Counted from the stretch's first letter, positions 8,115-34,373 are shown. The stretch: 64,000 nucleotides of DNA from Alphaproteobacteria bacterium MarineAlpha5_Bin5 (GCA_002938205.1 PTKZ01000001.1:9354-73353), one strand, 5' to 3'. Numbers and translations are program-made. The notes: a model not told the origin generated them from the sequence alone.

Positions 8115-11100
8115 TGCGCTCTATTCTCATCCCTCTCATAACTGGAGTACTACTCTCTTTTCCTATTTTGGCTAAAGGACCCCCTCCTGGAACAGGAGTA
8201 GGAGATGTAAAGGCCAACATCATGATTATGCTGGATGATTCAGGGAGTATGAGTGCCAGAGATCCTGCGCCAGGAATGTCTCATTGCACTTATGCTGTGG
8301 ATGTTGCTAATAATGGTGACATATTTACAGCAGACCCTTGCTATCACAAAGTTACCCGCCTTGATTCTGCTTATAAAGTTAAATCAACATTCGGTGGATC
8401 ATATAATTGGTATAGCAATGTAAATGGTATCGCAGCCTATTACCAACCTTGGTCCCTTGCATTGGATCAAGCGGACAGTACCGATGAGTATGTTTTCGTA
8501 GGCCGCTATCATGCAAGAGGAGCTGGAAGTTTTGGATCAAGCTCAAGATATAGCACAATCCTTAAAGTGTGCACAGGTATCACCACAACAGCTGCCTGTC
8601 CGAAAGCTGGAACACTTGTCGCCGTTAACGACAAACAAAACAATCAATACTATTCTATGGGTTTGGCCGTCCAAGGAAACTATGTTTACAGCCTATCCCA
8701 TCCACATATGCATATTCAAAAATACAATAAATCTGATTTAAGTTTTGTTACAAGTAGAACTAACATAAGGCAACAGGATTTTAATAACCGTTTTAACTAC
8801 AGATATGATGCCATTGCAGCTGTAGGGGACTATGTTTATGTTTCAAATTATAGAATTAGAAAAATTTGCCGCTATAATGCGTCTAATTTAAGCAATGCTA
8901 ATTTTTCAAATGGACAACATTGCATTACTTCGCCTAATTATCAATGGAGAGGGCTAGCTGCTTCAGGGAAAACAACCACATCAACGGCTGATGATTTTTT
9001 ATATACATGGACTCATAGAAATTCTCAAGGAACGATCCATAAATTTAATGCAAATTCCGGTGCCTTTGTTACGCGTTTTGCTCGAAGAGGTACCTCCACT
9101 GGACAAACCTATCATATCTATAGAGGAATAGGGGTTGATCCAAGTGGCAATGTATATGTTCCTGAGGCGGGATACTCTAACAGAACATGGGTCTCTAAAT
9201 TTACTAGTGCAGGTACATATGTATCACGGGGACCCAAATCAGCAAATCAAGGCAACAGGATGAAAATAGCTCATACGGCTATTCGTGCTATCTTAAAGGA
9301 CCCTGATTTAACGGCGGGGGCCAATTTTGGCATTATGTCTTGGGGATCAAAGTTTGTCATTCGCACTAAAATTTCTCCAAAAGGAGCAAATCAAATCTTA
9401 AATAAAACGCTACGGAAAATTTATCCAAGGGGCGGTACATATTTAGGAAGAGCAATTCAGCATGTGCGAACACGATATTGGCATAAATCAGGTGAAACAC
9501 CAATAGATCTTGGGGCAAAATGTCAGGGCAATTTTAATTTAGTCATTAGTGATGGGGCATACTGGGGAAGCCCGACGCCTGAACAGGAAATACCTAAATT
9601 AAGCAAACACTCCACAATGCCGGTTAAAACATTTATTGTTGGTCTTGGAAATTCTATTTATGGATATTCAAAATATACCACACTTGCTTCTTCAAAGTAC
9701 GGGGATACAACTCCACCAGGCCCTCTATTTGCTAATAATGTTACAACATTAACCCAGCAATTACGCTCTGCTATTTTAGCAGCCATTAACGGTAATTTGA
9801 CATTTACATCGCCAAAGGTTGATTTTAGCTCGACGCCAAATGGGTATATATGTCAACCGTCCTTTAAATATAAAGAGGCTGATCAATGGCAAGGACTGCT
9901 TACACGTTATGAAATTAAACAGGATGGTAGTATTGATGATCCAACAGGACAAGATCCTAATAAAACAATTCGTTTCCATAAAAAACTGGATGGTCGTTCC
10001 TCTTTAGTCACTAACTCAAACGGGCGAAAAGTATGGACTGTTGATCAGGATATTGAAAACCCAACATCAGGTGTTTATAAAAATAATAATTTTGATCCCG
10101 AGTATTCTACGGGCAGTCAAAATTTAGTAGATGCAAGCACGTATAATCTCATGACGGGTGGGGATACTTTACTAGGAAAACGTGATGTTGCGCGTATCAT
10201 GCGGTTTATGCGCGGACAAGATATGTTTGATCAAGATTCAGATTGTAAAAATATTAAAGCGATAAACTTTAATAATAAATGTTATACAGAAGATAAAGGC
10301 AGTACTGATGCGCCTTTACTTTATAAACTCCATGATTTGTATAACTCCGTTCCAGCCTATGTGGGTCCTCCTACAGCTCTAGCTTCTCCGGATATCAAAA
10401 ATACGGAGAACGAATATCGATATCAAAATAATTATGCAGCTTTTAAAAACAAACATAAAAATAGAAAGAATGCTTTAATCATAGGATCCAATGGAGGCAT
10501 GATTCATGCTTTTGATAATGGATGCAAAACAGCAAATGCTACCTGTACAACCGCATCTAATCCAGGTTCTGAGTTATGGGCTTTTGTACCGCCTTCTATT
10601 ATCCAAAACTTTAAATATATTGTTACCCCTCAAAAATACACAAAGCTTGATGCAGATGTAGGTACTAGTGATACAACTCTTACTGTTAATAGTACTTCAA
10701 ATTTCTCTAGCTCGGGGGAAATACGTATTAACAATGAGTTCATGCGCTATACAGGTAAAACATCTACAACCTTTACCGGTGTCACAAGAGGATATGATTG
10801 TTCAAGCAACGCACCATTCTGTGATGATGCAACTGCACATTCATCAGATGATATTGTCTATAATGAAACAACGGTCAGAAAACCTGAATATTCTGTATTT
10901 GGTGTAGATGGTCCTATTGTGGCAAAAGATATTTATACAGATGGAAACTGGAAAACAATTGCAATCGCAGGCTATGGTAAGGGAGGACGCGGTTTAACTG
11001 CTCTTAATATTACTAATCCTGATAATCCTGTTCATATGTTTAGCATTCTTAATGAAATTCAGGGACCTGGTTTATCTAGAGCCATTAAACTTTGGCAAAC

Positions 11101-12637
11101 GACGTACAATACAAGTTCAAAAGTGTATGAAACAAAACTAACTGATTATAGCTATAGTATGAACGTTGAGACAACAACTCTAGCAGCAGCTGTTAGTGCC
11201 ACTGAAACAGCAACAATACCCGTTAGTGATGCAAGTAAATTTGCAAGTGCCGGATATATAACGGTGACTAACAGCGATGGAAATAATGAAGTTATTTATT
11301 ACGGGAGTAAAAGCGGAAATAATCTTAAAAGTTTAATCCGCTCCGAAGATACCAGCGGTAATTCTAATGCTATTGCTCTTGAATCAGGAGCAGCCGTATC
11401 ACAAGATTCTTCATGCACCGTTGCTGCAACAAATGTACCAGCTGAATACGATTATACCCGTTTAGGATTAACCACGTCGATGCCACAAATTCTTAATTTG
11501 AAAATTAGTGGTAAGAAAAAATGGGTAGCTGTTTTTGGTGCTGGTCAAAATTATGGTAAAGATTGTACTACAGGTAATGCTGTCTATGTAATGGATTTAG
11601 AAGATAGTCCGGGAGAGATTATAAAACAAATCGTTATTCCAGATGATCCAAATAACTCTATATATAATACTGTTAATGCTAATGTTGCTATAGTGCAAAG
11701 AGACGGTACCACAAAAGCTGATTATTACGGAGCTATTGCCTACGTAGCGGATTTGGAAAATAAATTATGGAAGATTGATTTAACAGATAAAGCAGGCTCG
11801 CAATTTGGTCGTAAAGTGAAATTATTTGAAGATGTTGCAACCGATGATAATGGTCGCCGCAATTACCAAGAAATTTTACCAGTTCTCGATTCAAGCCAAA
11901 ATGTTCAGATGGGTGGCTCTAAGATTGAGAGTAATATTTTACGGTTATACTGGGGAACTGGTGATATGGATAATTTGGCAGACCGATCTAATAAAATAGT
12001 TAATCGTCTCTATGGTATCTCTGACCTAACATTTACAAATTTTGGTATAACGTGGCAGCCAGCGGATGATGTAAGTAATAAAAGTGCTCTATATCGATTA
12101 GCGGATTGTTATAATTCTACATCTCTAGCTTCTGCAACATGTCCTGTGCTCTCCAATGTGGGAACAAAAAATATTGGATGGTATATTACTTTACCTAAGC
12201 AACGCAAAACAACAGGAAGAAGACCGCTATATGATAAAGAGCAAGTTTATTTTGTTGTGTATGAACCAACAACGAAATTGTGTAGCCCTGGGGATGCTAT
12301 TTTAGGAACGTATGGCTATATGTGTCCTAATTATAAAAGATTAGTGGTGGCATTAGGGGCAGGTGTTGCAACCGGTGCGACTACACAGGGTAGTCAAATA
12401 TATATTGGTGTCTCCAATGCTGGCACGACAGGAACATATAAAAGAGGAGATATACTGGAGCAAAAAGGATCAGGATTTGGCGTTTCAGGTTCAGCTGCTG
12501 CTATTGCGAAAGATGTGAAAGATAATACTAAAGGAACAGATAGCATTATTGTTCTATCGCCAGTAGGCACAGCATCCACAGGTAAGAGTTCAATTGATGC
12601 ATGGCGTCATTATACTGGTGAAAATTACTTTGATTAA
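8114..12637 (+). CDS. pilY1: PilY1/PilC-type pilus tip adhesin (vWA + inserted beta-propeller + PilY1 C-terminal domain)
   Basis: Signal peptide; MIDAS DDSGS; PilY1 motifs WQGLL, LHDLYNSVP, GSNGGMIHAF, ELWAFVP, FGVDGP, WKTI, GKGGRG, YWGTG, GWYI; follows pilX. Confidence 0.88.
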   Translation: MRSILIPLITGVLLSFPILAKGPPPGTGVGDVKANIMIMLDDSGSMSARDPAPGMSHCTYAVDVANNGDIFTADPCYHKVTRLDSAYKVKSTFGGSYNWYSNVNGIAAYYQPWSLALDQADSTDEYVFVGRYHARGAGSFGSSSRYSTILKVCTGITTTAACPKAGTLVAVNDKQNNQYYSMGLAVQGNYVYSLSHPHMHIQKYNKSDLSFVTSRTNIRQQDFNNRFNYRYDAIAAVGDYVYVSNYRIRKICRYNASNLSNANFSNGQHCITSPNYQWRGLAASGKTTTSTADDFLYTWTHRNSQGTIHKFNANSGAFVTRFARRGTSTGQTYHIYRGIGVDPSGNVYVPEAGYSNRTWVSKFTSAGTYVSRGPKSANQGNRMKIAHTAIRAILKDPDLTAGANFGIMSWGSKFVIRTKISPKGANQILNKTLRKIYPRGGTYLGRAIQHVRTRYWHKSGETPIDLGAKCQGNFNLVISDGAYWGSPTPEQEIPKLSKHSTMPVKTFIVGLGNSIYGYSKYTTLASSKYGDTTPPGPLFANNVTTLTQQLRSAILAAINGNLTFTSPKVDFSSTPNGYICQPSFKYKEADQWQGLLTRYEIKQDGSIDDPTGQDPNKTIRFHKKLDGRSSLVTNSNGRKVWTVDQDIENPTSGVYKNNNFDPEYSTGSQNLVDASTYNLMTGGDTLLGKRDVARIMRFMRGQDMFDQDSDCKNIKAINFNNKCYTEDKGSTDAPLLYKLHDLYNSVPAYVGPPTALASPDIKNTENEYRYQNNYAAFKNKHKNRKNALIIGSNGGMIHAFDNGCKTANATCTTASNPGSELWAFVPPSIIQNFKYIVTPQKYTKLDADVGTSDTTLTVNSTSNFSSSGEIRINNEFMRYTGKTSTTFTGVTRGYDCSSNAPFCDDATAHSSDDIVYNETTVRKPEYSVFGVDGPIVAKDIYTDGNWKTIAIAGYGKGGRGLTALNITNPDNPVHMFSILNEIQGPGLSRAIKLWQTTYNTSSKVYETKLTDYSYSMNVETTTLAAAVSATETATIPVSDASKFASAGYITVTNSDGNNEVIYYGSKSGNNLKSLIRSEDTSGNSNAIALESGAAVSQDSSCTVAATNVPAEYDYTRLGLTTSMPQILNLKISGKKKWVAVFGAGQNYGKDCTTGNAVYVMDLEDSPGEIIKQIVIPDDPNNSIYNTVNANVAIVQRDGTTKADYYGAIAYVADLENKLWKIDLTDKAGSQFGRKVKLFEDVATDDNGRRNYQEILPVLDSSQNVQMGGSKIESNILRLYWGTGDMDNLADRSNKIVNRLYGISDLTFTNFGITWQPADDVSNKSALYRLADCYNSTSLASATCPVLSNVGTKNIGWYITLPKQRKTTGRRPLYDKEQVYFVVYEPTTKLCSPGDAILGTYGYMCPNYKRLVVALGAGVATGATTQGSQIYIGVSNAGTTGTYKRGDILEQKGSGFGVSGSAAAIAKDVKDNTKGTDSIIVLSPVGTASTGKSSIDAWRHYTGENYFD

Positions 12638-12677: not shown

Positions 12678-13055
12678 CTAAATTTGTTTAAGTACACCGA
12701 TAATCTTGGCACCATTATTACTTATAGATTTGTAAAAAATTTTACCTTTTACAACTGCATTGTGCTCTAAATATAATGCTTCTTTTACAGTTAACTCACC
12801 CTCAAACTTACCTGCAATTGTAGCATTATTAACTTCAAAATTTCCAATTAAAGATGCATTTGATTTAATATAAAGACGTTCTAATTTAAAAGATTTTTTT
12901 TTATTAATATCAATTTTTGCTAATTCTTCAACATTACCTTCAACAATAACACCTGCAGAAATTTCCTTTGTTTCACTATTAAGTTTATTAACTGCTCTTC
13001 TTCGAAGTTTTGCTTTTCGCTCAAACTCTTCTTTAATTATATTATCTTGATTCAT
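12678..13055 (-). CDS. Bactofilin (polymer-forming cytoskeletal protein)
   Basis: Beta-helix repeats IAGKFEGELTV, LEHNAVVKGKIFYKSI, GAKIIG. Confidence 0.75.
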   Translation of the reverse strand: MNQDNIIKEEFERKAKLRRRAVNKLNSETKEISAGVIVEGNVEELAKIDINKKKSFKLERLYIKSNASLIGNFEVNNATIAGKFEGELTVKEALYLEHNAVVKGKIFYKSISNNGAKIIGVLKQI

Positions 13056-13072
13056 TGTTTATCTTCATAATA

Positions 13073-13882
13073 TTATGTCAAATATATAGACTGTAAATAG
13101 TGTATTAGTATTTTTTCGGTATAATTAATTAATGGTAATCCTAGAAATATATAAATTAAAGTTGCTATAATTATATAAGGTCCAAAGGGTAATTGTGACT
13201 GAAAGTTTTTATTTTTACTAATTAAAATTATACTACCTATTATTACCCCGCTTAATGATGATACAATTAAAATAAACATAATGCCTTTAATCCCAAATAA
13301 AAAACCAAGAACGACGAATAGTTTTAAATCACCTAATCCCATACCTTCTATTTTTCTCACATATTGGTAAAAAACAATTAAGCCTCCTATGAACAGAAAG
13401 GCTATAAGGGCACCAAGTGCAGAAGGATATAAGGATGCAAAAATACTATCTAGATTAGGTAGAAATAATTTTCCTAAAGCTAAAATACCAATAAGTAGAA
13501 CTAGTGAATCAGGAATAATTAAATGTTTTAGATCAATAAAAAAGATTACTATAAATACAGGAATAAGAATTAAAAAGTAAACTAGATTTATACTTAAGCC
13601 ATATTTCCATCCAAAAAATAAAAAAAATAAAGCAGTCGATAATTCTACAATAAAATATCGTATTGTTATTTTATTTTGACAAAAAACACATTGGCCTCTT
13701 AAATATAAATAAGAAAATAAAGGAATATTATAATAAAAAGGAATAGGGGTTTTACAACTTGGACAATGTGATTTAGGTAAAATAATACTCTGCTGAATCG
13801 GGAGACGATATATGCAGACATTGGAAAAACTTCCTACCGCTAATCCCAACAAAAAATACACCGTTAGTTCAAATATTTGCAT
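13073..13882 (-). CDS. pilD: Prepilin peptidase/N-methyltransferase
   Basis: GSFSNVCIYRLP, CPSC...CVFC zinc motif, catalytic aspartates in FIDLK and GMGLGDLKL, LPFGPY. Confidence 0.95.
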   Translation of the reverse strand: MQIFELTVYFLLGLAVGSFSNVCIYRLPIQQSIILPKSHCPSCKTPIPFYYNIPLFSYLYLRGQCVFCQNKITIRYFIVELSTALFFLFFGWKYGLSINLVYFLILIPVFIVIFFIDLKHLIIPDSLVLLIGILALGKLFLPNLDSIFASLYPSALGALIAFLFIGGLIVFYQYVRKIEGMGLGDLKLFVVLGFLFGIKGIMFILIVSSLSGVIIGSIILISKNKNFQSQLPFGPYIIIATLIYIFLGLPLINYTEKILIHYLQSIYLT

Positions 13883-13905
13883 AAATTATCAATAAAAAAA
13901 TACTT

Positions 13906-16002
13906 TTACCCAATAACAAGTAAAGTTAAATCATCAGTCAGTTTTTCAGTAGTTTGTTGTATTGTTAATACAGTTTTTTCTACTTCTCTTTTAGGGGAAA
14001 GACCTTTATTTTTTTCTAATATTTGTTTTATTCCTTCTACGCCTAATTCTTCCCCTTTATTATTTATAGCTTCCGTAATTCCATCAGTAAAAATAAACAG
14101 CCGCTTATCTTTTAATGATATCGTTGTAGATATAAAAATATCAGATGATTCTTGTTTCATTACTCCTACAGGAATGCCTGCATCTGAATATTCTATAAAC
14201 TCCCCTTTGCTATCTCTTATTAATGGTGGTTGATGTCCAGCATTAGCCCAGGTAATTGTTTGATTTGTTAAATCATAAATACCAACAATCATTGTGATAA
14301 ACATTCCTTGTACGGAAGTTTCTGCTAATTCATTATTTGTTTCAAACAAAATTTCTTGGGGAGACATTTCATTTTTAGAAAAAACTTTAAATAATGTTGA
14401 TGCTTTTGCCATAACGATCCCAGCATTTACTCCTTTGCCTGATACGTCGCCTAGAGTAAAATAAAGTTTATTATTTATAGGAATATAATCAAAAAAATCG
14501 CCAGAAATTTCCCCTAAAGGTATATTAATTCCTGCTATTGGATATTGCTCTAAACTTACTGTTGGCAGAAGACTTTGTTGAACTTCGGCAGCTAAATTGA
14601 TTTCACTTAAGATACGCTTTCTCCATCTATCTAATTCAATCTTACTTTCTTCTAACTCTTGCATAATTCTATTATAATAAAACCCTATTTGTCCTGCATC
14701 GGTAAAAGGGTCCTGTGGCCCACGTAAAGACAGATCTTTAGTTTCCATTTGTTTTTTTAATATTTTTAATAGTTCGTAATTATCAGTGGACGCGTTATGC
14801 TCTACTATATTCAGACCTAATTCTTCTTGTACACGACTAACTCTCAGAGGAATTAAAAGATTAATGATAAAAATCAAAATATATGAAATACAAAAACTAT
14901 AAGCCCCAATAGATACAATTCCAATTACTTGAACCTTTAACTGGTTCCAGGTGTTCAGGTCAGTTCCTAACAAATTAGAATCACCAAATAACGCAACAGC
15001 AAGAGTACCCCAAATACCAGCAAATAAATGAACAGGTATTGCCCCAACAACATCATCAACTTTTAATTTCTCTAAAAAGCTGTTACCATAACTTGCAATA
15101 ATACCTCCTATAATACCTATGACAATGGCACTAAGTTGATCAACAGCATGGCAAGCAGCTGTAATAGAGACTAATCCTGCTAACGGACCATTAATAATAT
15201 AATGAGATTCAACTTTTTTTAATACAACATATCCAAAAACTAAACTGGCTATTAGACCAGCAGCAGCAGATAAAAAAGTATTTACCAATATTAAGGGAAC
15301 TGTATCATCTAAAGTTCCGTTACTTCCTCCGTTAAAACCAAACCAACCAAACCATAAAATTAACGTTCCAAGAGCTGCTAAGGGAAGATTGCTTCCATTA
15401 AATTTTTGTACGGAATTATTTTTTTTAAAGCGACCAAAGCGAGGACCAATAATAATTGCTGCACTAAAAGCTATCCACCCACCTATACTATGAACAATTG
15501 TACTACCGGCAAAATCAACAAATCCAATTTTACCTAACCATCCCATAGAATTTGTAAGGGCTATGGCAGGATCGCGATTTAAATCGGCCCAAGCCCAATG
15601 ACCAGCAACAGGATAAATTAATAACGCTGTTATAAACGTTATATATAAATAACCAAAAAATTTTAATCGCTCTGCTACTACACCTGAAATAATTGAGGCT
15701 GCTGTTGCAACAAACATTGCCTGAAAAACAAAAAAACTTTGATTTAGAGCATTATCGGAAACAAAAAAAAAGCTATCCGTTCCAAAAAATCCGCCCATGG
15801 ATGAGCCAAACATAATCCCAAACCCAATTGCCCAAAAAACACTTACTGAGACACCAAAGTCAGCAATATTTTTTAAAGCAACATTAATATTATTTTTTTT
15901 TCTTGATAAGCCCGCTTCTAAGCACATAAAGCCAGCTTGCATTATAAATACAAGAATAGCACTTATAAGTACCCATAAAGTATCTATTTGTTGTTCGATC
16001 AT
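13906..16002 (-). CDS. Ammonium transporter (Amt) fused to a C-terminal SpoIIE/PP2C Ser/Thr phosphatase
   Basis: Amt motifs MQAGF, GHWAW, DFAGSTIVH, LWFGWFGFNGGS, DDVVGAIPVH, EELGL. Then a coiled coil and PP2C motifs SGDFFD, DVSGKG, NAGH, TDGITE, DDLT. Confidence 0.92.
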   Translation of the reverse strand: MIEQQIDTLWVLISAILVFIMQAGFMCLEAGLSRKKNNINVALKNIADFGVSVSVFWAIGFGIMFGSSMGGFFGTDSFFFVSDNALNQSFFVFQAMFVATAASIISGVVAERLKFFGYLYITFITALLIYPVAGHWAWADLNRDPAIALTNSMGWLGKIGFVDFAGSTIVHSIGGWIAFSAAIIIGPRFGRFKKNNSVQKFNGSNLPLAALGTLILWFGWFGFNGGSNGTLDDTVPLILVNTFLSAAAGLIASLVFGYVVLKKVESHYIINGPLAGLVSITAACHAVDQLSAIVIGIIGGIIASYGNSFLEKLKVDDVVGAIPVHLFAGIWGTLAVALFGDSNLLGTDLNTWNQLKVQVIGIVSIGAYSFCISYILIFIINLLIPLRVSRVQEELGLNIVEHNASTDNYELLKILKKQMETKDLSLRGPQDPFTDAGQIGFYYNRIMQELEESKIELDRWRKRILSEINLAAEVQQSLLPTVSLEQYPIAGINIPLGEISGDFFDYIPINNKLYFTLGDVSGKGVNAGIVMAKASTLFKVFSKNEMSPQEILFETNNELAETSVQGMFITMIVGIYDLTNQTITWANAGHQPPLIRDSKGEFIEYSDAGIPVGVMKQESSDIFISTTISLKDKRLFIFTDGITEAINNKGEELGVEGIKQILEKNKGLSPKREVEKTVLTIQQTTEKLTDDLTLLVIG

Positions 16003-16169
16003 TATTTGTAATTACTGAGTTGCCACATTACATCAATTATTGATATTTGGGGTTAATACAATATTTTTTTCACAAAATTCGCCAAAATACCTAGAGATAA
16101 AAATTTTGATTATTTTTCATATTGAGGTATTGCAATCAACGTTATTTGGTAGTACGGGTTAGAAAAGAT

Positions 16170-16739
16170 ATGGTTGAAGAAGCAAAATTAGAAACTTTAC
16201 CAAAGAGCACTGTTGATCAAGGTAAACAGGTTTTTTTAAGTAAACATGATCGTGTTGGAGATAATCCTAATAAAATGGTTATTGGTAGTGGAACATCTTT
16301 TAAAGGTTCTGATATTAAAACTGACTATATTGAAATATACGGGAAAGTGGAGACAAGTATTCACTCAAAAATTATTTTCGTTGGCTCTTCTGCAGAAATT
16401 ATTGGACCAGTTACATGTGAGCAAATTGAAATACATGGATCAGTAAGCGGAGGCATCCAAGTCAATGGGAAAGCAACAATAAAAAAAACTGCTACAGTAG
16501 TTGGCACCTTGAGGTATCAAGTAATATCTGTTGAAGAGGGGGCAAGTGTTTATTCAGATTTACATTGTACAAATGCTGATCAAAAATTAGTTGATAAGAT
16601 CTCACATCTAAGAAAAACAATGAACCAGGGTGGATTAAATACTACCACAAAACTGGTTGTCGAAAATAAAGAGACTGCAATAGAGGAAGCCGCAAAAAAC
16701 GAAAAAGAGAAAAAAAAGAAGCGTTCGTTTTTTTCATAA
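16170..16739 (+). CDS. Bactofilin family protein with basic C-terminal tail
   Basis: Repeats VIGSGTSFKG, IFVGSSAEIIG, IHGSVSGGI, VVGTLRY..VEEGA; probable ATG at 16170. Confidence 0.85.
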   Translation: MVEEAKLETLPKSTVDQGKQVFLSKHDRVGDNPNKMVIGSGTSFKGSDIKTDYIEIYGKVETSIHSKIIFVGSSAEIIGPVTCEQIEIHGSVSGGIQVNGKATIKKTATVVGTLRYQVISVEEGASVYSDLHCTNADQKLVDKISHLRKTMNQGGLNTTTKLVVENKETAIEEAAKNEKEKKKKRSFFS

Positions 16740-16850
16740 AATTTTCTTATTAACATTTTTTTTTAATTACTTCTAAAATATTGCTTTTTGTGTTTAACAT
16801 ACTCGTTCAAATCAGCTACAATCTTAAAAATAAAATAATTAATCGGAGGC

Positions 16851-17231
16851 ATGCTTATGATTAAATATATTGGAATTATTCTAGCAATAATTTTTTTGAA
16901 TTTTTCTCAAGCTTACGGTGATGATGTTTCTGCCGAAATGAAAATAAAACTTCAAGATTTAATGAATAAATTTATTGAAGAAATATCTATTGATGGAAAA
17001 ATGATTTATATTGATACAAAATCAGATAAACTTAATGGATTATATTTTTCATCAGCTCATCCAATGTATGTTCCACATGGAAGTAATTTTTTCTTGTGTA
17101 CTTCAGGGATAGATGATGAGGGAAATGAACATTTGGTTGATTTTTATGCTCAAGAAACTAATGGTGAGTTTAAAATTGTTGATGTTTCTGTAGATAATAG
17201 AGAAACAACAAAAAAAATTTTAGGTATGTAA
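16851..17231 (+). CDS. Hypothetical secreted protein
   Basis: GGAGG RBS; signal peptide ending AYG; 32 nt upstream of the second PP2C gene. Confidence 0.75.
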   Translation: MLMIKYIGIILAIIFLNFSQAYGDDVSAEMKIKLQDLMNKFIEEISIDGKMIYIDTKSDKLNGLYFSSAHPMYVPHGSNFFLCTSGIDDEGNEHLVDFYAQETNGEFKIVDVSVDNRETTKKILGM

Positions 17232-17263
17232 GTTGAAATTTATAGCTTAAATATACAGCTATA

Positions 17264-18706
17264 ATGGGTTTTTTTAAAAAATTTATATTAGTAAGATATA
17301 CAATATTACTAGTGGCATTTTTGTTGCCACTGGTAATGTTTGTCGCATATTCTTATTATCAGTATCGATTAAATTCTATTACTGATGAATTAGTATTCAG
17401 AATAACATCCATAAATGACAACACAGATAATCGATATTCAGAAGAGTGGCGATGGAGACATATGAATGCTGAAAAAGATAGAAAGAAATTAGCATCTGAT
17501 CTACGAAATGAATTAAAATACTTATCAGCTATTCCATTCATTATTTGTGCAGAATTTGAAGAACCAATTTCAAAAAGAATATTTGGAGCATGGCCTGTTC
17601 CCCAATGTTCAATTATAAAGAAAGAAAGCACAAAAGTTTCAAGTAAGTTAAAAAATAATTCAGTTTTTAACTTATACTATGATCATTTCTATCCATCAAA
17701 AATTGTCAATGAAGAAATAGTTACTATTGCTTTTATAATTTCAAGCATTTTTTTATTTTTATTGTCAATTCTCATTCTTGCTAATTACTTGATAATTAGT
17801 CGACCAGTTAAAATGATTATTAATGCAATAAATGATTATAATAAAAATCATTCTGATTTTAATATTAAAACCAAAGATATGTTAGGTAAAACACACAATA
17901 AGGAAGATGAATTTGGTCGCATAGCACAATCGATGACTAGTCATGTTTCTGCTTCAGAAAAATATTTAAAAGAAATTAAATCACAACGAGCTCAAATGGT
18001 ACGAGATCTTGATGATGCAAGAAAATTACAAGATCATATTTTACCTAAAGTAAAAGATTCTTCCTTTCCTTTAGGTGTAATGAATAAAGCTGCAAAAGGA
18101 TTGTCAGGTGACTTTTATGATTTTATTCATTCTGATGAAGGAGATTGTTTTTTTATTTTAGCAGATGTTTCAGGAAAAGGAGTGCAGGCATCAGTTGTAA
18201 TGGTTTATGCTTTATCAATTTTTCGTCAAGAGGTGATGAATTCAAAAGATCTTAAAGAAATAGTAAAAAAAATTAATTACGGTATAGCAACCAATTTCCA
18301 AGGATTATTTATTACTGCCATTGTTGGGAGTTTTAATACAGTTTCAAAAAAAGTTGATTTTTTCAATGTTGGTCATAATCCTCCAATTTATCTTTCTGAG
18401 AAAGGTGATGTAGAACTTTTTTCTGCTTCAAGTGTGCCTATTGGTATAATGGAAGAATTAGATAGTAACTTAACCAAAGAAGAAAAAGATCTATCTAACG
18501 GAAGAATTTTCTTTTACACGGATGGTTTTCCTGAAACAATTGTTAATGGAAAAGAAATAGGGGAAGAAGGTTTAATCAAGAAAATCAAGAATTCTATAAC
18601 TAGCTCAGCACAAGAAACGACAAATAATGTAATGAAACAAGAAATATTTAATCCAGAAAAATTAGCAGATGATATGACTTTTATGACTTTAGGTCCTCTA
18701 AAATAG
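17264..18706 (+). CDS. Membrane sensor SpoIIE/RsbU-like PP2C phosphatase (TM-periplasmic-TM-HAMP-like-PP2C)
   Basis: Two TMs, HAMP-like segment (ISRPV...EDEFGRIA), PP2C motifs SGDFYD, ADVSGKG, NVGH, TDGFPE, DDMT. Confidence 0.9.
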   Translation: MGFFKKFILVRYTILLVAFLLPLVMFVAYSYYQYRLNSITDELVFRITSINDNTDNRYSEEWRWRHMNAEKDRKKLASDLRNELKYLSAIPFIICAEFEEPISKRIFGAWPVPQCSIIKKESTKVSSKLKNNSVFNLYYDHFYPSKIVNEEIVTIAFIISSIFLFLLSILILANYLIISRPVKMIINAINDYNKNHSDFNIKTKDMLGKTHNKEDEFGRIAQSMTSHVSASEKYLKEIKSQRAQMVRDLDDARKLQDHILPKVKDSSFPLGVMNKAAKGLSGDFYDFIHSDEGDCFFILADVSGKGVQASVVMVYALSIFRQEVMNSKDLKEIVKKINYGIATNFQGLFITAIVGSFNTVSKKVDFFNVGHNPPIYLSEKGDVELFSASSVPIGIMEELDSNLTKEEKDLSNGRIFFYTDGFPETIVNGKEIGEEGLIKKIKNSITSSAQETTNNVMKQEIFNPEKLADDMTFMTLGPLK

Positions 18707-18763
18707 GGGATTTTTTATATGTTTTTAAATAATTTTACTTAAACTGTTAATTTAATGGTCACA

Positions 18764-18828
18764 TTAATGTCTTTTTAATGTAATAAATAAGGATAAATTA
18801 GGATTGTAGATATTAACAAAAAATTAAC
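18764..18828. promoter_or_regulatory. Two putative CtrA boxes (TTAA-N7-TTAA) upstream of the major pilin
   Basis: TTAAtgtctttTTAA at 18764-18778 and TTAAcaaaaaaTTAAC at 18813-18828. The AT-rich background lowers specificity. Confidence 0.45.
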
Positions 18829-18868
18829 AGTAATACTAAATTATAATAACAAGTTTAAGGAGAACGCA

Positions 18869-19381
18869 ATGAACAAGTTTAAAAAGAGAGAAAAAGGTTT
18901 CAGTTTGATTGAGCTATTGGTTGTTGTTGCAATTATAGGTATTCTTGCAGCAGTGGGTATCGTAGCTTATTCAGGTTATACCGCTTCTGCTAAAGTGAAT
19001 GCAACTAAATCATCGCATGCAACTATAGTGAAATTTATTAATGCAGAAAAAACAAAATGTGATACAGGTGCTAGCGAAAATATGGGTGTGGTCGCAAAGA
19101 ATGGATCAAGTGCAAATGCAAAATGTAGTGATAATATAGGTGCTGGTAAAGCAACAACAGCTGCAAATACATTTAATGCCCATTTCGAAGGAAAAAAATT
19201 TAAAAATCCATATTCCTCTAGTAAAATGGCAACGGAGAGTTGTACAATAAATGATACAAATGTTGGTTGCACGCTTATTGAAAAAGATGGAAATGATAGT
19301 TTAAAAATATCTACTTGCTATGAAACAGCTTGCACTGCAACAGGCACAACTACATTAGTTGATATTATAAGTCTTAAATAA
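18869..19381 (+). CDS. pilA: Major type IVa pilin (PilA-like)
   Basis: Strong RBS AAGGAG, own 160-bp upstream region, KG|FSLIELLVVVAIIGILAAVG, Cys-rich variable C-terminus. Confidence 0.8.
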   Translation: MNKFKKREKGFSLIELLVVVAIIGILAAVGIVAYSGYTASAKVNATKSSHATIVKFINAEKTKCDTGASENMGVVAKNGSSANAKCSDNIGAGKATTAANTFNAHFEGKKFKNPYSSSKMATESCTINDTNVGCTLIEKDGNDSLKISTCYETACTATGTTTLVDIISLK

Positions 19382-19387
19382 ATATAA

Positions 19388-19822
19388 TTGAATAAGCGTT
19401 CTTTATATAACAAGGGGTTCTCTTTGATAGAACTCCTTGTTGTCGTTGGTATTATCGGTATTTTGGCTGCAGTGGGCATTGTATCCTATGTAGGTTACGT
19501 TGCAGGGGCTCAAAAGACTGATGCTCAAAATAATATGCAAGCAATGTATATGGTTCAAGAAGAATATAAAGCAAGTAATGCTTTAAACACTTATTACACA
19601 ACAAGTACTGGAAATACATGCACACCTAATTCTAGCAACCACAACAACATTAATACAAATTTATTTGGCGGCAAGGAGCAAATTGATATTTCTGATCCTA
19701 AATTTGTTTTCTGTATTGCTGGTGGTTCTGGTAGCGATGGAGGTTTTAAAATTTTTTCTCAAAGACCTGATGGTTCTGATCAAATGACTCTTAATGCTAA
19801 TAATGCAAAAAGCGGTTGGTAA
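19388..19822 (+). CDS. Type IV pilin, PilE-like
   Basis: KG|FSLIE; DAQNNMQAMYMVQEEY helix; C-terminal W typical of PilE; TTG start. Confidence 0.75.
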   Translation: MNKRSLYNKGFSLIELLVVVGIIGILAAVGIVSYVGYVAGAQKTDAQNNMQAMYMVQEEYKASNALNTYYTTSTGNTCTPNSSNHNNINTNLFGGKEQIDISDPKFVFCIAGGSGSDGGFKIFSQRPDGSDQMTLNANNAKSGW

Positions 19823-19826
19823 AAAA

Positions 19827-20168
19827 TTATTCCTGAATTGTATCTACAATTTTAAAAATACTATCAAGTCTAGCCAATTTAATTACTTTTAACACACCAG
19901 GACTTGTTTTAAATAAATAAAAATTTACTCCAGCTTTTACTGCTTGTTGATGAGAATGAATTAAACTCGCTATACCTGAAGAATCTATATAACTAACCTC
20001 TGATAAATCAGCATAAACAGATTTCGCTATTGTAAAATTATGTTCTTTCTTATTGATCTCTATTTGTGCTAAGATTTTTTCTTTAACTTCTGGAGATACG
20101 CTTAGATCAACTTCTCCTGATATACGCACCATTGATCCATTATTTATATTCTCTACAGTAATAGCCAT
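19827..20168 (-). CDS. STAS anti-sigma-factor antagonist (RsbV/SpoIIAA-like)
   Basis: SGEVDL, DLSEVSYIDSSG phosphoacceptor motif, LARLD. Confidence 0.92.
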   Translation of the reverse strand: MAITVENINNGSMVRISGEVDLSVSPEVKEKILAQIEINKKEHNFTIAKSVYADLSEVSYIDSSGIASLIHSHQQAVKAGVNFYLFKTSPGVLKVIKLARLDSIFKIVDTIQE

Positions 20169-20304
20169 AATTCAAAAAAATAATCTCCATACATATTATG
20201 ATTTATTATTATATCAAGAATTATATTGAGACATTAATTTATATTTTATTAATACAAAACTTCTTCTGGAAAATTTATTTTAATTTGTTAAAAGTTTACT
20301 ATTA

Positions 20305-20709
20305 ATGGAAGACACAAGGCTTGATATTGCTGCAACAGCAGAAAATTTAAAAGAAATAAGACAATTTGTAAGGAATTACATTGATAAATGTGGGGGGCTT
20401 GATCAATATAAAGATGAGTTGGTTTTAGCAATTGATGAAGCATGTCAGAATGTAGTGCGTCATGCCTACAAAGATATAAAGGGGGAAATAGCGCTTAAAT
20501 TAAGTTTCAAAAATAATGAGTTTATTGTTACAGTAGAAGATGATGGAACGCCTGCTATACCAGAAAAAATTAAACCAAGAAATCTTGATGATGTAAAACC
20601 AGGAGGACTCGGAACATTTTTTATTAATCAAATTATGGATAGCGTTTCTTTTCAATTATCTTCTCCCCATTGGACTAATTGTCTTATAATGAAAAAAAAA
20701 ATAAAATAA
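20305..20709 (+). CDS. RsbW/SpoIIAB-like anti-sigma Ser kinase (HATPase_c_2)
   Basis: LAIDEACQNVVRHAY N-box, VEDDG, GGLG...MD. Confidence 0.92.
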   Translation: MEDTRLDIAATAENLKEIRQFVRNYIDKCGGLDQYKDELVLAIDEACQNVVRHAYKDIKGEIALKLSFKNNEFIVTVEDDGTPAIPEKIKPRNLDDVKPGGLGTFFINQIMDSVSFQLSSPHWTNCLIMKKKIK

Positions 20710-20713
20710 AAAT

Positions 20714-20932
20714 GTGAATATTTTTCTATTTACTACAATAGCAGTAACAGCATTGACAATATTTGTTTTAATATATTCTTATTCTTTGCAATTTTTTAGT
20801 TTATCAAAAAAAGGAAAAGAATGGAGAGAACGAATTAAACAAGATACTTTAGTAGGTCTTGCTATTATTTTTTTAACTTTAATAAGTTGTTTTTTATGGG
20901 TGATTTTTATTTATTTTAGAATCTTTGTATAA
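20714..20932 (+). CDS. Small two-TM membrane protein
   Basis: Two hydrophobic segments; GTG start 4 nt after the kinase stop. Confidence 0.55.
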   Translation: MNIFLFTTIAVTALTIFVLIYSYSLQFFSLSKKGKEWRERIKQDTLVGLAIIFLTLISCFLWVIFIYFRIFV

Positions 20933-20934: not shown

Positions 20935-21384
20935 TTAGAGCTTATTTTTTGCAGTATTGTTTTGTAGGATTGATTCAAGAGCCTTGTTAATATCTTTTGG
21001 TCCATTCTCTATTTTACACTGACCTATACTCACATGGGTTGAGTTTTTTAATTCAAGTGTTTTCCTATTAATATAATGTTTGTTTTCATTAAATTTAGGT
21101 CTGTAGTATATTTTATTGATATTAAAAATTAATCTTTTTGGTGAATATTTAATTCTCCCATCTTTTTTTGTTATAATAGTATATTGTAACATTTTAGAAC
21201 AACCGAAATAAAATCCAATTGATTCAAGAGGTCTTTGCTCATTGTAACATGTAAGAGCTATTGCTGTTAAATCATTTGTTTTTGTACACGTTTCTGAAAA
21301 GTTAGTTGTTGGAGTTATTGCAAAGGCATGATGTGAAGTGAAGAATAATGGCAATATAAAAATAAAAACTAAAATTTTTTTCAT
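20935..21384 (-). CDS. Hypothetical secreted protein
   Basis: Probable start MKKILVF at 21384; signal peptide ending AFA; several Cys. Confidence 0.6.
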   Translation of the reverse strand: MKKILVFIFILPLFFTSHHAFAITPTTNFSETCTKTNDLTAIALTCYNEQRPLESIGFYFGCSKMLQYTIITKKDGRIKYSPKRLIFNINKIYYRPKFNENKHYINRKTLELKNSTHVSIGQCKIENGPKDINKALESILQNNTAKNKL

Positions 21385-21385
21385 A

Positions 21386-21646
21386 CTATTTATCAGTACA
21401 ATCAAATTTATAATCATGTAAACTCTTTACTATCCTATAATCACGACTTTCTTGTTTATTAAGTTTATGTATTTTTCCTTTTTCATCACAAAAACTTTTT
21501 GCATATAAATTTGCTTTGTCAAAATTTTTCTCAAAAGCTTGAATTTTTATTGCGTTTTCTTGAGTATCTATAATTTTAAATGGAGCTGTTGTAGGCATGA
21601 CAACTACTGTAACTAAAACAGCTGCAAGAGCTAAAAATCCTATCAT
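21386..21646 (-). CDS. Small hypothetical membrane-anchored protein
   Basis: N-terminal hydrophobic stretch, two Cys; abuts the next gene. Confidence 0.55.
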   Translation of the reverse strand: MIGFLALAAVLVTVVVMPTTAPFKIIDTQENAIKIQAFEKNFDKANLYAKSFCDEKGKIHKLNKQESRDYRIVKSLHDYKFDCTDK

Positions 21647-21720
21647 AATATTTTATTCATATATGATTTATAGATTGTGTCAAATATTTGAAGAATATTA
21701 ATATTAAGAAATTAGTATAA

Positions 21721-22533
21721 CTAATAGATTTTTTTCTTTTCTAAAAAATCTAGTATTTTTTTTACAACATCAAATTCAAATAAATTATTATGATTTGCAT
21801 TAGGAATAAATAATGATTTTTTAGGTTCCTTTGCGGCTGCAAATACTTTTTTACCAAAGCTAATGTCAATCACATTATCTTTTTCGCCGTGTAAAATTAG
21901 AAGAGGGGATCTGATTTTGTTAATAATATCAATAATATTATATTGATCAAAGATTAACCATTTTGCAGGAAGATACCAATAATGTTTTTGAGCAACATCG
22001 GCTATCGATGTATAAGGAGCTTCTAAAACTGTAGCTGCGAATTCTGCTTCAGATGATAACTTCACTGCTATTCCACAACCTAAGGATTCACCATAAAGAA
22101 TTATTTTTTCAGATTTGATTTTGTTTTTTGATAAAAATTCAATTGCTGCTAAAGCATCATAAAGCAAACCTTTTTCAGAAGGTTTGCCTGGATTATCTGC
22201 ATAACCTCTATATTCTAGAAAAAATAAACCATAACCAGCATCAATAAAGGGTTTAAATTTATTTACTCTATGACCGACATGACCCCCATTGCCATGAAAA
22301 ATTAAAATTGTATGTTCATCTTGAGATGTTGGTTTTTTTATCCAAGATTTTAAAACTAATCCATCTTTAGTCTTGAGGGAGATTTCTTCTAATCCTGTGT
22401 TTAGAAAATAAACACTATCCACTTTTTCTTTATCTGGGAAATAAAGGAAGGATCTTTGAAAAATAAATAATGAAATAATTAAAATTAGATATCCAATGCA
22501 GACATAAAACAGAATAAGTAACATTTTTTTCAT
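21721..22533 (-). CDS. Alpha/beta hydrolase (ABHD13/Bem46-like)
   Basis: FHGNGG, EYRGY, GESLG nucleophile elbow, HGEKD, HN. Confidence 0.88.
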   Translation of the reverse strand: MKKMLLILFYVCIGYLILIISLFIFQRSFLYFPDKEKVDSVYFLNTGLEEISLKTKDGLVLKSWIKKPTSQDEHTILIFHGNGGHVGHRVNKFKPFIDAGYGLFFLEYRGYADNPGKPSEKGLLYDALAAIEFLSKNKIKSEKIILYGESLGCGIAVKLSSEAEFAATVLEAPYTSIADVAQKHYWYLPAKWLIFDQYNIIDIINKIRSPLLILHGEKDNVIDISFGKKVFAAAKEPKKSLFIPNANHNNLFEFDVVKKILDFLEKKKIY

Positions 22534-22881
22534 TTAAAAATTAAATTATTTTAAGACAATACTATATTAGTATTTTTTAATAAATTTAATTTAGAAATAA
22601 AAAAAATGATTTTGTAGTGTCATAAATTTGCACCACACCCAAATAATATAAATTATGCTTACATGTGATGCTTTTGGAGTTCTTCCTCCTATTAGTAAAC
22701 TTTCATTAGTCAAGCAATCTTTCATTTTATATCTGGATATACAGCCAATATACCTGGTACTGAATCTGATATTATTGAATCAGTTGCTACTTTTTTCACC
22801 ATGTTTTATAGATTATTTCAAAAAAATTTATTAAATTTGTCAAAATAATATAATATTTAATAAGCTATAAAGGAGAAAAAA

Positions 22882-23175
22882 ATGATTTATGTAATCGCTA
22901 AGCTACCATGTCATGAAGAAGGAGCCTCGAAACTTATTGATTGGGCAAAAAGTGACGATGGATTTTCAGTGACAAGAACATATAAGGGATTCAAGCACAT
23001 TGAACTTTTAGTTGAAGAGAATAATAAAACAATTTGGTTATATGAACAATGGGAAACAAAAGAGGATCATCAAGCATATTTGAATTTTAGAATAGAGAAT
23101 GGATTTGAAAACTTTTTAAAAGAAATATTAGAAGATGAATTTTCACTTTCATATTCAACTAATGCCGATATTTGA
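22882..23175 (+). CDS. Antibiotic-biosynthesis-monooxygenase (ABM)-like protein
   Basis: AAGGAG RBS; LYEQWETKEDHQAY motif. Confidence 0.75.
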   Translation: MIYVIAKLPCHEEGASKLIDWAKSDDGFSVTRTYKGFKHIELLVEENNKTIWLYEQWETKEDHQAYLNFRIENGFENFLKEILEDEFSLSYSTNADI

Positions 23176-23274
23176 TCTGAGAAATTAATTATTTTCATTT
23201 AGAAGCTTCAGATTTAGATTCTCAAATCAGGCCATTGTGCACTATGGGCTAATTAAAATTTATTTATATTAAAA

Positions 23275-23646
23275 ATGATTAACGTAGTTGCTGCTATTAT
23301 AAAAAAAGATAATCATTTTTTAATTGTGCAAAGAAATAGAAAAAAACATATGGGTTTAAAGTGGGAATTTCCCGGAGGAAAAGTTGAGAAAAATGAAACT
23401 TTTGAAGAAGCATTATTAAGGGAAATAAAAGAAGAACTGAATATCAAAATTGTTTTGCAAGATAAAATTGCTGAAGAAAAATATAAAGATGAAAAAATAG
23501 ATATAGTTTTACATTACTATTTATGCATTCAGGAAAGTGGCACTATTATACTTAACGAACATGAAAATCTAGCTTGGATTGAAAAAAAAGATTTTGAAAA
23601 ATATGACTTTGCAGAAGGTGATGGAAATATACTTTCATCATTGTAA
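23275..23646 (+). CDS. NUDIX hydrolase, MutT/NudG-like
   Basis: WEFPGGKVE...ALLREIKEEL Nudix box. Confidence 0.9.
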   Translation: MINVVAAIIKKDNHFLIVQRNRKKHMGLKWEFPGGKVEKNETFEEALLREIKEELNIKIVLQDKIAEEKYKDEKIDIVLHYYLCIQESGTIILNEHENLAWIEKKDFEKYDFAEGDGNILSSL

Positions 23647-23652
23647 TTTACT

Positions 23653-23763
23653 ATGAATATAAATTTTTTTAAAAAAACAAAGATTTTAGATGGAGGAATG
23701 GAGCAAGAATTACTTGCAAGGGGATTAAAAGCTAAAGGTTCTTTAGCTAATTTAAAATTTTAA
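23653..23763 (+). pseudogene. 5' fragment of a homocysteine S-methyltransferase family gene
   Basis: Hand translation MNINFFKKTKILDGGMEQELLARGLKAKGSL...stop after 36 codons. ILDGGM.QEL..RG is the HMT N-terminal motif. Confidence 0.65.
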
Positions 23764-23831
23764 CTATTCAATTAAATTAAAATTAATTTTCTATGCTAGA
23801 AATTATTAATTTATTATATTTTTTATGGCTA

Positions 23832-23852
23832 CGAATCCCTGTCTCTCCGCCA
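23832..23852 (+). repeat. Isolated tRNA-Ser 3' end (att-like remnant)
   Basis: CGAATCCCTGTCTCTCCGCCA: T-loop, T-stem, acceptor strand and GCCA end, with no 5' half upstream. Confidence 0.65.
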
Positions 23853-23916
23853 AAAATTTAAAATATGTAATAAATTTATTAATTTATTTTATAAGGTATT
23901 AAAAAAAGGAGAAATT

Positions 23917-23985
23917 ATGAATAAGTGGACTTGGATAATTGCTGCTGTAGTGGTGATTGTAATTATATACTTTGTTTTTGCATAA
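23917..23985 (+). CDS. 22-aa single-TM small protein
   Basis: AAGGAG RBS 5-6 nt before ATG; MNKWTWIIAAVVVIVIIYFVFA. Confidence 0.55.
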   Translation: MNKWTWIIAAVVVIVIIYFVFA

Positions 23986-24152
23986 TTTTATAAATATAAT
24001 TATTTTAAGTAATAATTAAAAAGTGTTTATGGAGGTAATGAATCGAGGGTTTAAATCCCTCGTTTTCCTCCAATAAAATTCCCAATTAATACGTAGGTAG
24101 TTGATTTCTAATAATTACAATTTTATTATTTTTTTAGCAATATAAATAAATA

Positions 24153-34365: not shown

Positions 34366-34373
34366 TTTAAAAG

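Follow-up and report, generated by a model that had tools for sequence, protein, structure and literature searches.

A partner-switch gene set with an Amt-fused phosphatase, a putative ammonium receptor, in the type IV pilus locus of a marine alphaproteobacterium

A partner-switch gene set interleaved with pilus genes

A stretch of 64,000 nucleotides from Alphaproteobacteria bacterium MarineAlpha5_Bin5 (GCA_002938205.1 PTKZ01000001.1:9354-73353; the whole stretch is called the window below) carries a type IV pilus (T4P) locus. Interleaved with its pilus genes is a complete, self-contained partner-switch set of four parts: two SpoIIE-family (PP2C) serine phosphatases, one of them fused to an ammonium transporter (Amt) module; a STAS protein; and an RsbW-like serine kinase. 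We hold with moderate confidence that this switch is dedicated to its T4P island, that the Amt-PP2C fusion acts as its ammonium receptor, and that its third component is related to the pilus. A full partner-switch set interleaved with pilus genes had been proposed in a reading of the sequence alone (hereafter the original prediction), and all four parts do lie within a complete T4P locus.

We called genes from a list of open reading frames (ORFs) together with Pfam and NCBIfam scans of the window proteins. The genes of the switch, with those that stand among them, are as follows (E-values in brackets).

12678-13055, minus strand: bactofilin A (Pfam Bactofilin, 5.9e-12)
13073-13882, minus strand: prepilin peptidase PilD (Pfam A24_N_bact, 2.6e-32; Peptidase_A24, 1.1e-13)
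13906-16002, minus strand: fusion of Amt and SpoIIE (PP2C), 698 amino acids (aa) (Ammonium_transp, 3.9e-113; SpoIIE, 7.4e-39)
16122-16739, plus strand: bactofilin B (Bactofilin, 3.9e-17)
16851-17231, plus strand: secreted protein of 126 aa (no family in Pfam or NCBIfam; hydrophobic N-terminus)
17264-18706, plus strand: second SpoIIE/PP2C phosphatase, 480 aa (SpoIIE, 1.8e-32, at residues 292-476)
18869-19381, plus strand: pilin 1 (N_methyl, 2.4e-09)
19388-19822, plus strand: pilin 2 (N_methyl, 2.6e-07)
19827-20168, minus strand: single-domain STAS protein, 113 aa (STAS, 5.7e-18; ant_ant_sig, 4e-19)
20305-20709, plus strand: RsbW-like GHKL serine kinase, 134 aa (HATPase_c_2, 1.8e-24)
20714-20932, plus strand: protein of 72 aa with two transmembrane (TM) segments, starting 5 nucleotides (nt) after the kinase gene

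The fusion gene is separated from pilD by 23 nt, and pilD from bactofilin A by 17 nt, according to both coordinates and sequence. In the STAS protein, the predicted phospho-acceptor Ser63 stands within an intact DSSG motif (D62-S63-S64-G65, in the context SYIDSSGIASL), and Y[IM]DSSG is kept in 25/25 aligned STAS homologues. The genes themselves, the two spacings and the intact phospho-acceptor motif had all been read in the original prediction, and each was recovered unchanged.

Both PP2C domains carry the aspartate-bearing motifs SGDF, D(V)SGKG, TDG and DD.T, and D502, D519, D640, D690 and D691 of the fusion are invariant in a 12-row alignment (A1); we take these to be the named PP2C motifs, with the five aspartates presumably serving as metal ligands. 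Hydrophobic segments at residues 2-33 and 147-182 of the second phosphatase fit a periplasmic loop of ~115 residues, and this sensor part matches no known family. The 126-aa secreted protein may be a periplasmic co-sensor. Across 28 aligned rows, the kinase conserves the stretches DEA.QN..RHAY and KPGGLG with few substitutions (for the latter, one row has KPEKIG and one KAGGLG), and we assume that these correspond to the N-box and the KPGGLG box.

Regulators encoded in the genome

The assembly (1.58 Mb in 55 contigs, 92% complete, GC content 26-30%) contains two SpoIIE matches, both in this locus, and one STAS match, also in this locus. Above the Pfam cut-off, HATPase_c_2 matches nothing in the genome but the kinase described here; a second match, in a 416-aa ORF on another contig, falls below the cut-off at 23.9 bits. 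Because the locus holds the genome's only SpoIIE pair, its only STAS protein and its only above-cut-off HATPase_c_2 protein, the linkage of switch and pilus genes is more than chance. The genome also encodes five response-regulator receiver domains, one PII protein and a second, plain Amt for uptake. We found neither Sigma54_DBD nor GGDEF in the genome; thus, the routes by which pili are usually controlled, namely PilSR with sigma-54 and cyclic di-GMP (c-di-GMP), were not found.

Matches of the kinase to the NCBIfam RsbW and SpoIIAB models range from 9.7e-16 to 3.9e-09, and all are far below the equivalog cut-offs. Since the curated RsbW cut-offs are not reached, we classify the kinase by its predicted protein as a member of the RsbW/SpoIIAB family and not as an RsbW orthologue. 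RsbW-type proteins classically bind sigma factors, and the matches to these models would suit an alternative in which the kinase holds RpoD or a 288-aa RpoH-like factor until dephosphorylated STAS protein frees the sigma factor, altering the transcription of pilin or of a wider set of genes. The pilin genes seemingly form a transcription unit of their own, with a terminator-like hairpin at 18691-18713 ahead of pilin 1, which also speaks for such an arrangement. We nevertheless regard this anti-sigma role as improbable. The search for Sigma70_r2 genes found only two, in ORFs of 755 and 288 aa and both outside the island, and no sigma-B/F-type sigma factor was found in the 92%-complete assembly. 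The kinase falls far short of every curated RsbW/SpoIIAB equivalog cut-off and, among SAR11 genomes, is confined to those that carry T4P (57/57; see below), whereas RpoD and RpoH are presumably core proteins.

The Amt module resembles ammonium receptors

Among all PDB sequences, the best match of the fusion is Sd-Amt1 (8qj3, 8qj4, 8qpf; E = 1.7e-119, 403 bits), aligned over residues 5-452 including the linker, and the next is Ks-Amt5 (6eu6; 2.2e-94); transporters match more weakly (Af-Amt1, 4.3e-49; AmtB, ~4e-35). Pfluger et al. 2024 define ammonium receptors by a lateral pocket that holds two ammonium ions (PMC11152129). In Sd-Amt1, this N1/N2 pocket consists of Glu-29, Asn-45, Asp-48, Thr-104 and Ser-107; Phe-25 opens access to it, Lys-44 and Tyr-119 shift on binding, Asn-269 blocks the cytoplasmic exit, and Gln-22 is present but is no ligand. 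On activation of Sd-Amt1, the HAMP domains pair and the transducer is dimerised (PMC11152129).

In the printed alignment, Q22, F25, E29, K44, N45, D48, T104, S107, Y119 and N269 of Sd-Amt1 correspond to Q22, F25, E29, K44, N45, D48, S103, S106, Y118 and N271 of the fusion. The canonical Amt pore residues are likewise kept (W138, S227, F97, F223, H171 and H325). Across 12 aligned fusions that are 54-87% identical to the query, the N1/N2 and pore positions are invariant with three exceptions: position 103 holds Ser or Thr; position 271 holds Leu in SAR11 fusions as against Asn in this lineage; and positions 22 and 25 are missing from two rows that are truncated at the N-terminus. The linker is strongly conserved in the same alignment (…EELGLNI.EH…RGPQDPFT…). 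Judging by these residues, the Amt module is most likely of the ammonium-receptor kind, a putative sensor rather than primarily a transporter. The receptor signature strengthens the ammonium input put forward in the original prediction; what needs correcting is its exclusiveness, as ammonium is one of several inputs in SAR11 loci.

The switch accompanies pilus genes across SAR11 genomes

The window comes from an alphaproteobacterium of a GTDB order other than that of Pelagibacteraceae, or SAR11: a genome that the class-wide search labels as sharing only the class with the window (G154) is identical, over 3759 bases, to one in the Pelagibacteraceae sample (G455). A protein database search with the linker-plus-phosphatase part of the fusion returned 3803 relatives, the best 120 of which are all Amt plus SpoIIE. 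Among the best 80 of 595 relatives in species-representative genomes, the full-length matches were six Pelagibacteraceae records with 52-55% identity. Four of these six records carry pilT, pilMN, a PilO-like gene, pilQ, pilB, pilC, the kinase and STAS genes (on the other strand), two pilin genes and the fusion gene; one of the six lies on a contig too short to show its neighbours. This is the kind of neighbourhood survey that the original prediction had proposed, and it places homologous modules mostly beside pilus genes.

We then counted the components in 301 SAR11 genomes, a species-representative sample in which, as in the other genome counts given here, many genomes are incomplete. PilC (T2SSF) was detected in 75/301 genomes and the RsbW-like kinase in 57/301; all 57 kinase-bearing genomes are PilC-positive (57/57), and the kinase occurs in none of the PilC-negative genomes (0/226). 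The kinase gene lies ≤10 kb from pilC in 56/57 genomes. The Amt-PP2C fusion, called as a full-length profile match with E ≤1e-100, was detected in 26/301 genomes, every one of which has both PilC and the kinase (26/26), and the nearest fusion gene is ≤10 kb from pilC in 19/26 and 20-28 kb away in 3/26. Fisher tests on this co-occurrence give very small P; related genomes are not independent, so only the nesting counts.

Gene orders were mapped in 30 SAR11 regions around the kinase, PilC or the fusion and in four more regions of S2 genomes, using phmmer with the window proteins and Pfam spot checks, which divergent genes may escape, as the S2 STAS gene first did. Three types of locus, S1, S2 and S3, can be told apart. 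The order in S1 is pilC-RsbW-STAS-pilA-pilA-fusion, often with two tandem fusion genes or two tandem STAS genes. Tandem STAS genes were seen in L041, L042, L119, L131, L132 and L147; their upstream copy has a shorter C-terminus and keeps DSSG. In S2, the kinase gene is beside pilT, and the STAS gene lies 16-45 kb off, directly before pilD in 3/3 genomes examined and surrounded by pilin genes and another SpoIIE phosphatase gene. Among the S3 loci, L146 has RsbW-STAS and then pilD-fusion-pilA, L136 encodes a CHASE2-type phosphatase within a few kb of pilT, and L137 has an ORF with a SpoIIE domain directly after pilT, cut by the end of the region. The STAS gene is adjacent to the kinase gene in 11/20 of the SAR11 regions mapped first.

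Several kinds of phosphatase occur in the SAR11 islands: Amt-fused, CHASE2-fused (5 tested), GAF-fused and adjoining pilD (2 tested), and REC-fused (1 tested). The REC-SpoIIE phosphatase (L163:18187-19809), which has a weak HisKA-like stretch, is encoded beside a run of pilin genes in an S2 island.

This variety bears on a further alternative, which we consider very improbable: that the Amt-PP2C fusion is a transporter, its phosphatase tuning its own transport or acting on other phosphoproteins, with no input into the STAS/kinase pair. The pore residues (Trp, Phe gate and twin His) are all intact, and the fusion is absent from 31/57 kinase-bearing SAR11 genomes. However, the N1/N2 pocket is invariant, the residue equivalent to Asn-269 is retained as Asn in this lineage (Leu in SAR11), and the fusion is never present without the kinase. 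Other sensor-PP2C fusions fill the same slot, which fits interchangeable inputs to one switch, and SpoIIE-family phosphatases typically target STAS proteins (PMC11418112).

In quick trees, which have long branches, S1, S2 and S3 are recovered with PilB as well as with the kinase, and the window copy is a long-branched sister of S1; the PilB protein encoded next to the window is 48% identical to the nearest SAR11 copy. The agreement of the two trees indicates that the kinase diversified with its pilus system. The association of switch and pilus survives rearrangement, and it does so in two bacterial orders.

A linkage of this kind could also arise if the switch controlled a non-pilus matter, such as nitrogen metabolism or a stress response, and merely had the pilus genes as neighbours in a flexible island. 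The block as a whole does resemble an island, some fusion genes are far from pilus genes, and the island holds unrelated genes (encoding a hydrolase, an ABM protein, a NUDIX protein and a GT2-methyltransferase). We nonetheless give such hitch-hiking a low probability: switch and pil genes are interleaved, their association outlasts three SAR11 gene orders and a fourth in the window, the presence of the kinase is nested in that of PilC, and the kinase tree mirrors the PilB tree.

In a class-wide sample, none of the 29 loci other than the window's own (L009-L037; 0/29) has an Amt of this kind adjoining SpoIIE; L034 gave a weak Amt-like match (E = 1.4e-06, 22 bits). In L079 (Leptospira kemamanensis), a PP2C-like ORF and the start of an Amt ORF overlap, an order different from that of the fusion.

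Close relatives and the genomic island

A metagenome scan with the linker-plus-phosphatase part yielded six contigs with 82-98% identity. The order kinase-STAS-pilin 2-pilin 1-second phosphatase-126-aa protein-fusion is found in 4/4 of these close contigs that are long enough, pilD directly follows the fusion gene in 4/4 that extend beyond it, and the gene for the 126-aa protein is just upstream of that for the second phosphatase in 5/5 that cover the position. Bactofilin B is present in 3/5 of the contigs covering its position, and bactofilin A follows pilD in 1/4, a pilin or PilY1 gene standing there otherwise; no bactofilin was found in 39 SAR11 loci screened with bactofilin queries. The original prediction had named a bactofilin among the neighbours of the module; this variability among near relatives, together with the result for SAR11, speaks against its being part of the conserved wiring. 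The gene for the 72-aa two-TM protein stays beside the kinase gene in L154-L157, and a homologue of this protein is encoded beside pilin and PilY1 genes in the SAR11 locus L144.

DNA synteny with genus relatives (15/15 searched) starts at ~25,620, at an oligopeptide ABC ATPase gene, and continues for 12 kb with 70-77% identity; to the left of ~25,620, no syntenic match was found in the 15 genus relatives searched. We also searched 40 relatives, of which 24 are of the same genus (56-89% complete) and 16 of the same order (86-99% complete). The linker-plus-phosphatase part has no match in these genomes (0/40), nor has Peptidase_A24 (0/40), and all their STAS matches are in ORFs of ~540 aa, the size of SulP transporters; the phosphatase part is also absent from a further member of the genus that is 96% complete. 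Because the island and the genus-syntenic core share one 190-kb contig, the block of T4P and switch genes is a genomic island and not a binning error. The stretch is wholly or partly present in 20 sea-water runs from 14 studies. Independent metagenome contigs from two runs bridge the junctions of pilD and fusion, of PilY1, bactofilin and pilD, and of pilin, STAS and kinase genes, which argues that the gene order is not an assembly artefact.

A proposed mechanism and the evidence bearing on it

In the mechanism that we propose, NH4+ entering the Amt pore would bind laterally, in the N1/N2 pocket, and this binding would be relayed by the conserved helical linker to the cytoplasmic PP2C domain, which by analogy with Sd-Amt1 and Ks-Amt5 would most likely be turned on. 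The RsbW-like kinase would phosphorylate Ser63 of the STAS protein, and the PP2C domain would remove that phosphate; the phosphatase with two TM segments and a periplasmic sensor part would bring a second signal to this STAS/kinase pair. Phosphorylation of the STAS protein would then set whether it and the kinase are bound to each other or free for a third component, most likely one of pilus assembly or pilin expression, and piliation would follow nitrogen supply. All of the biochemistry in this scheme is inferred, as are its target and the direction in which ammonium would act.

A pilus-related third component is suggested because no sigma-B/F-type factor was found and because the module travels with pilus genes. 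In the non-sigma partner switches known to us, among them that of HmpV (see below), the STAS protein is the output. Since no suitable sigma factor was found and non-sigma switches act through STAS proteins, the effect that we favour is one at the level of proteins, either on the machinery of the pilus or on the supply of pilin. Only tentatively do we put forward a fuller scheme for the mobile T4P islands of SAR11-type streamlined marine alphaproteobacteria, in which one STAS/kinase pair would be their dedicated controller. Interchangeable phosphatases would serve it with signals from ammonium (Amt), the periplasm (CHASE2 or two-TM sensor), cytoplasmic ligands (GAF) and a phosphorelay (REC), and the STAS protein or the kinase would touch the pilus machinery directly, without a sigma factor, so that ammonium would act as a gate. 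A complex prediction for PilB (22-row alignment) with the STAS protein (19-row alignment) gave 'no answer' (score 0.00, mark 0.32), which is evidence neither for nor against contact.

As to the sign of the response, there are two ecologies that would fit: pili that scavenge DNA when ammonium is scarce, or attachment, through PilY1 and autotransporter adhesins, when ammonium is locally high. A hint from experiment in favour of the mechanism comes from strain HTCC1062, where the 'type 4 fimbrial biogenesis' protein SAR11_0061 was up 1.58-fold in nitrogen-limited stationary phase, with a value of 1.23 for its mRNA (PMC3870248 Table 1). The closeness of the locus tags in this data set (Smith et al. 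2013, PMC3870248) would fit the S1 gene order.

Several observations weigh against the proposed mechanism. The phosphorylation steps, the target and the effect on pili are putative, coming from comparative genomics only. Pfam detects no HAMP domain in the linker of the fusion; the linker of the SAR11 fusion has been termed HAMP-like from an AlphaFold model (PMC11796062). Under nitrogen limitation, the protein levels of SAR11_0049 and SAR11_0050, the Amt-PP2C fusions of HTCC1062, were unchanged (Smith et al. 2013, PMC3870248), which fits a sensor role and proves nothing. The fusion gene lies >400 kb from pilC in 2/26 fusion-bearing SAR11 genomes and on another contig in 2/26. Locus L046, one of the six Pelagibacteraceae records above, lacks pilus genes within 10 kb, and STAS and SpoIIE genes of its genome are on another contig. 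In S2, the 20 kb around pilBCQ contain no STAS or SpoIIE gene. The RsbW-like kinase is absent from 18/75 PilC-positive genomes; unless kinase genes were missed in incomplete genomes, pili can therefore exist without the switch. Finally, the flexible islands of SAR11 gather unrelated cargo, and the linkage could partly reflect shared hot spots.

Relation to known systems

Ammonium receptors and partner switches are both of known kinds, and the pieces assembled here have been published; their synthesis apparently has not. Like the fusion, Sd-Amt1 and Ks-Amt5 have an Amt with an intact pore and a lateral N1/N2 pocket, joined by a helical linker to a transducer in the cytoplasm. Their transducers are a diguanylate cyclase or a histidine kinase, whereas that of the fusion is a PP2C serine phosphatase, known from sequence alone, and the words phosphatase, SpoIIE and PP2C do not occur in the main text of the Sd-Amt1 and Ks-Amt5 papers. 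A serine phosphatase would be a third type of transducer in the class of ammonium receptors.

The closest described proteins are those of SAR11, namely Amt-GI5/SAR11_0049 and SAR11_0050 of HTCC1062, which are 52-56% identical to the fusion over their full length, have the same Amt-linker-PP2C architecture, are borne on islands and have been proposed as ammonium sensors. The fusion in the window differs from Amt-GI5 in belonging to another GTDB order and in adjoining pilD instead of following the pilin genes. The presence of the SpoIIE Pfam domain in two Pelagibacter AMTs was remarked on by McDonald et al. 2010 (PMC2944026). A 2025 Microbiome paper described a 716-aa 'Amt-GI5' with a HAMP-like linker, encoded in a genomic island, and proposed it as an ammonium sensor (PMC11796062). 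According to that paper, the fusion is confined to SAR11 among ~12,000 single-cell genomes, and a cognate transducer was sought and none found, the role being called not assessable; neither 'pilus' nor 'pili' appears in its text.

A 2026 preprint draws a STAS/RsbW pair in SAR11 pilus loci and separately remarks that the fused phosphatase suggests a sensory role; in the available part of the preprint, no sentence joins this remark to the pair in the pilus loci. No paper linking the Amt-phosphatase to a STAS/kinase pair or to pili was found in the literature searched. The original prediction had stated that the combination was nowhere described. With respect to the fusion (in print since 2010, with the sensor proposal in 2025) and to the STAS/RsbW pair (2026 preprint), this was too strong, whereas the joined hypothesis was indeed not found.

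The Bacillus modules RsbU/RsbV/RsbW and SpoIIE/SpoIIAA/SpoIIAB consist, as here, of a PP2C phosphatase, a STAS protein with DSSG and a GHKL kinase; the present set differs in that no sigma-B/F-type factor was found, in its membrane-receptor inputs and in its setting within a pilus locus. Pseudomonas aeruginosa reportedly uses HptB-HsbR-HsbA, in which a REC-PP2C protein and a STAS protein are said to control surface behaviour through flagellar and c-di-GMP factors. By description, the REC-SpoIIE phosphatase beside the pilin genes of one SAR11 S2 island is similar. In Nostoc punctiforme, HmpU/HmpV/HmpW form a partner switch for hormogonium development and motility that is listed beside T4P motor genes (PMC6495340). 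The STAS protein HmpV is the output of this system and acts on an undefined non-sigma effector (PMC6495340). Unlike the set described here, the Hmp system, which we liken by description and not by sequence, is cyanobacterial and has no ammonium-receptor input in the available description (PMC6495340). Nostoc thus offers one example of a link between a partner switch and type IV pili, and the present locus would be a second.

Regulators are very few in SAR11-type cells, and what their pili do and how they are controlled is described as unclear in the literature; a 2025 Nature Communications paper suggests that SAR11 pili may aid DNA uptake in nitrogen-poor water (PMC12789548). From the linkage reported here, the STAS/kinase pair emerges as a candidate transducer for the Amt-phosphatase fusion, and the pilus as a candidate output. 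If the proposal is true, ambient ammonium would gate whether some of the sea's most abundant cells take up DNA or attach, which would be relevant to how nitrogen is scavenged and genes are exchanged in surface waters.

The surrounding pilus locus, the rest of the island and transcription

The type IVa pilus set is complete in one locus, with PilB, PilC, PilQ, PilM/N, PilT, PilD and major and minor pilins. The genes pilC, pilB and pilQ are just upstream of the window on the same contig (L007), and the left part of the window holds the following.

3-1127 (running past the window edge), minus strand: secreted coiled-coil protein of the pilus assembly operon (sub-threshold FliJ match; hydrophobic N-terminus)
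1124-1741, minus strand: PilO-like single-pass membrane protein (no Pfam family above cut-off)
1747-3513, minus strand: PilM-PilN fusion (PilM_2, 5.9e-25; PilN, 1.5e-06)
3701-4711, plus strand: PilT-type retraction ATPase, 336 aa (T2SSE, 3.3e-48)
4723-7463, plus strand: minor pilins and a PilX-like protein, four ORFs (N_methyl and PilX_N matches)
8114-12637, plus strand: PilY1-like tip protein with a VWA domain, 1507 aa (VWA_2, 5.1e-08)

The coiled-coil gene sits between pilQ and the PilO-like gene, and homologues of the latter are placed between pilMN and pilQ in SAR11 loci. Homologues of the PilY1 gene adjoin pilD in L153, L156 and L144. PilB (L007:5521-7290) bears an MshEN domain (3.1e-11), which elsewhere is a c-di-GMP-binding module. 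The pilus locus is flanked, at the start of the contig (L007:318-3728), by a gene for a type Va autotransporter of 1136 aa with three Big_5 repeats; type Va autotransporters are also drawn in SAR11 pilus loci in the 2026 preprint.

To the right of the switch (20935-25607), the island encodes a secreted 160-aa protein, an alpha/beta hydrolase, an ABM monooxygenase, a NUDIX hydrolase and a GT2-methyltransferase fusion. Genus relatives also have matches to the NUDIX gene, at other, non-syntenic positions.

A sigma-70 promoter scan of the window was uninformative (65 sites versus 56.5 expected), and terminator-like sites numbered 5 versus 3.1 expected. In two RNA-library runs, the evidence consists of assembled contigs, and the libraries may contain DNA: one contig spans 16466-16642 in bactofilin B with 0 differences, another spans 18986-19401 in pilin 1 with 2 differences, and no contig covers the phosphatase, STAS or kinase genes, although contigs cannot prove absence. 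An Rfam scan of the window found no nitrogen-related riboswitch; its sole match is a bacterial small signal recognition particle RNA at 34275-34369 (56.4 bits). The pilin 2 and STAS genes are convergent, with 4 nt between their stop codons (19822-19827), and their transcripts would therefore overlap unless terminated within the genes.

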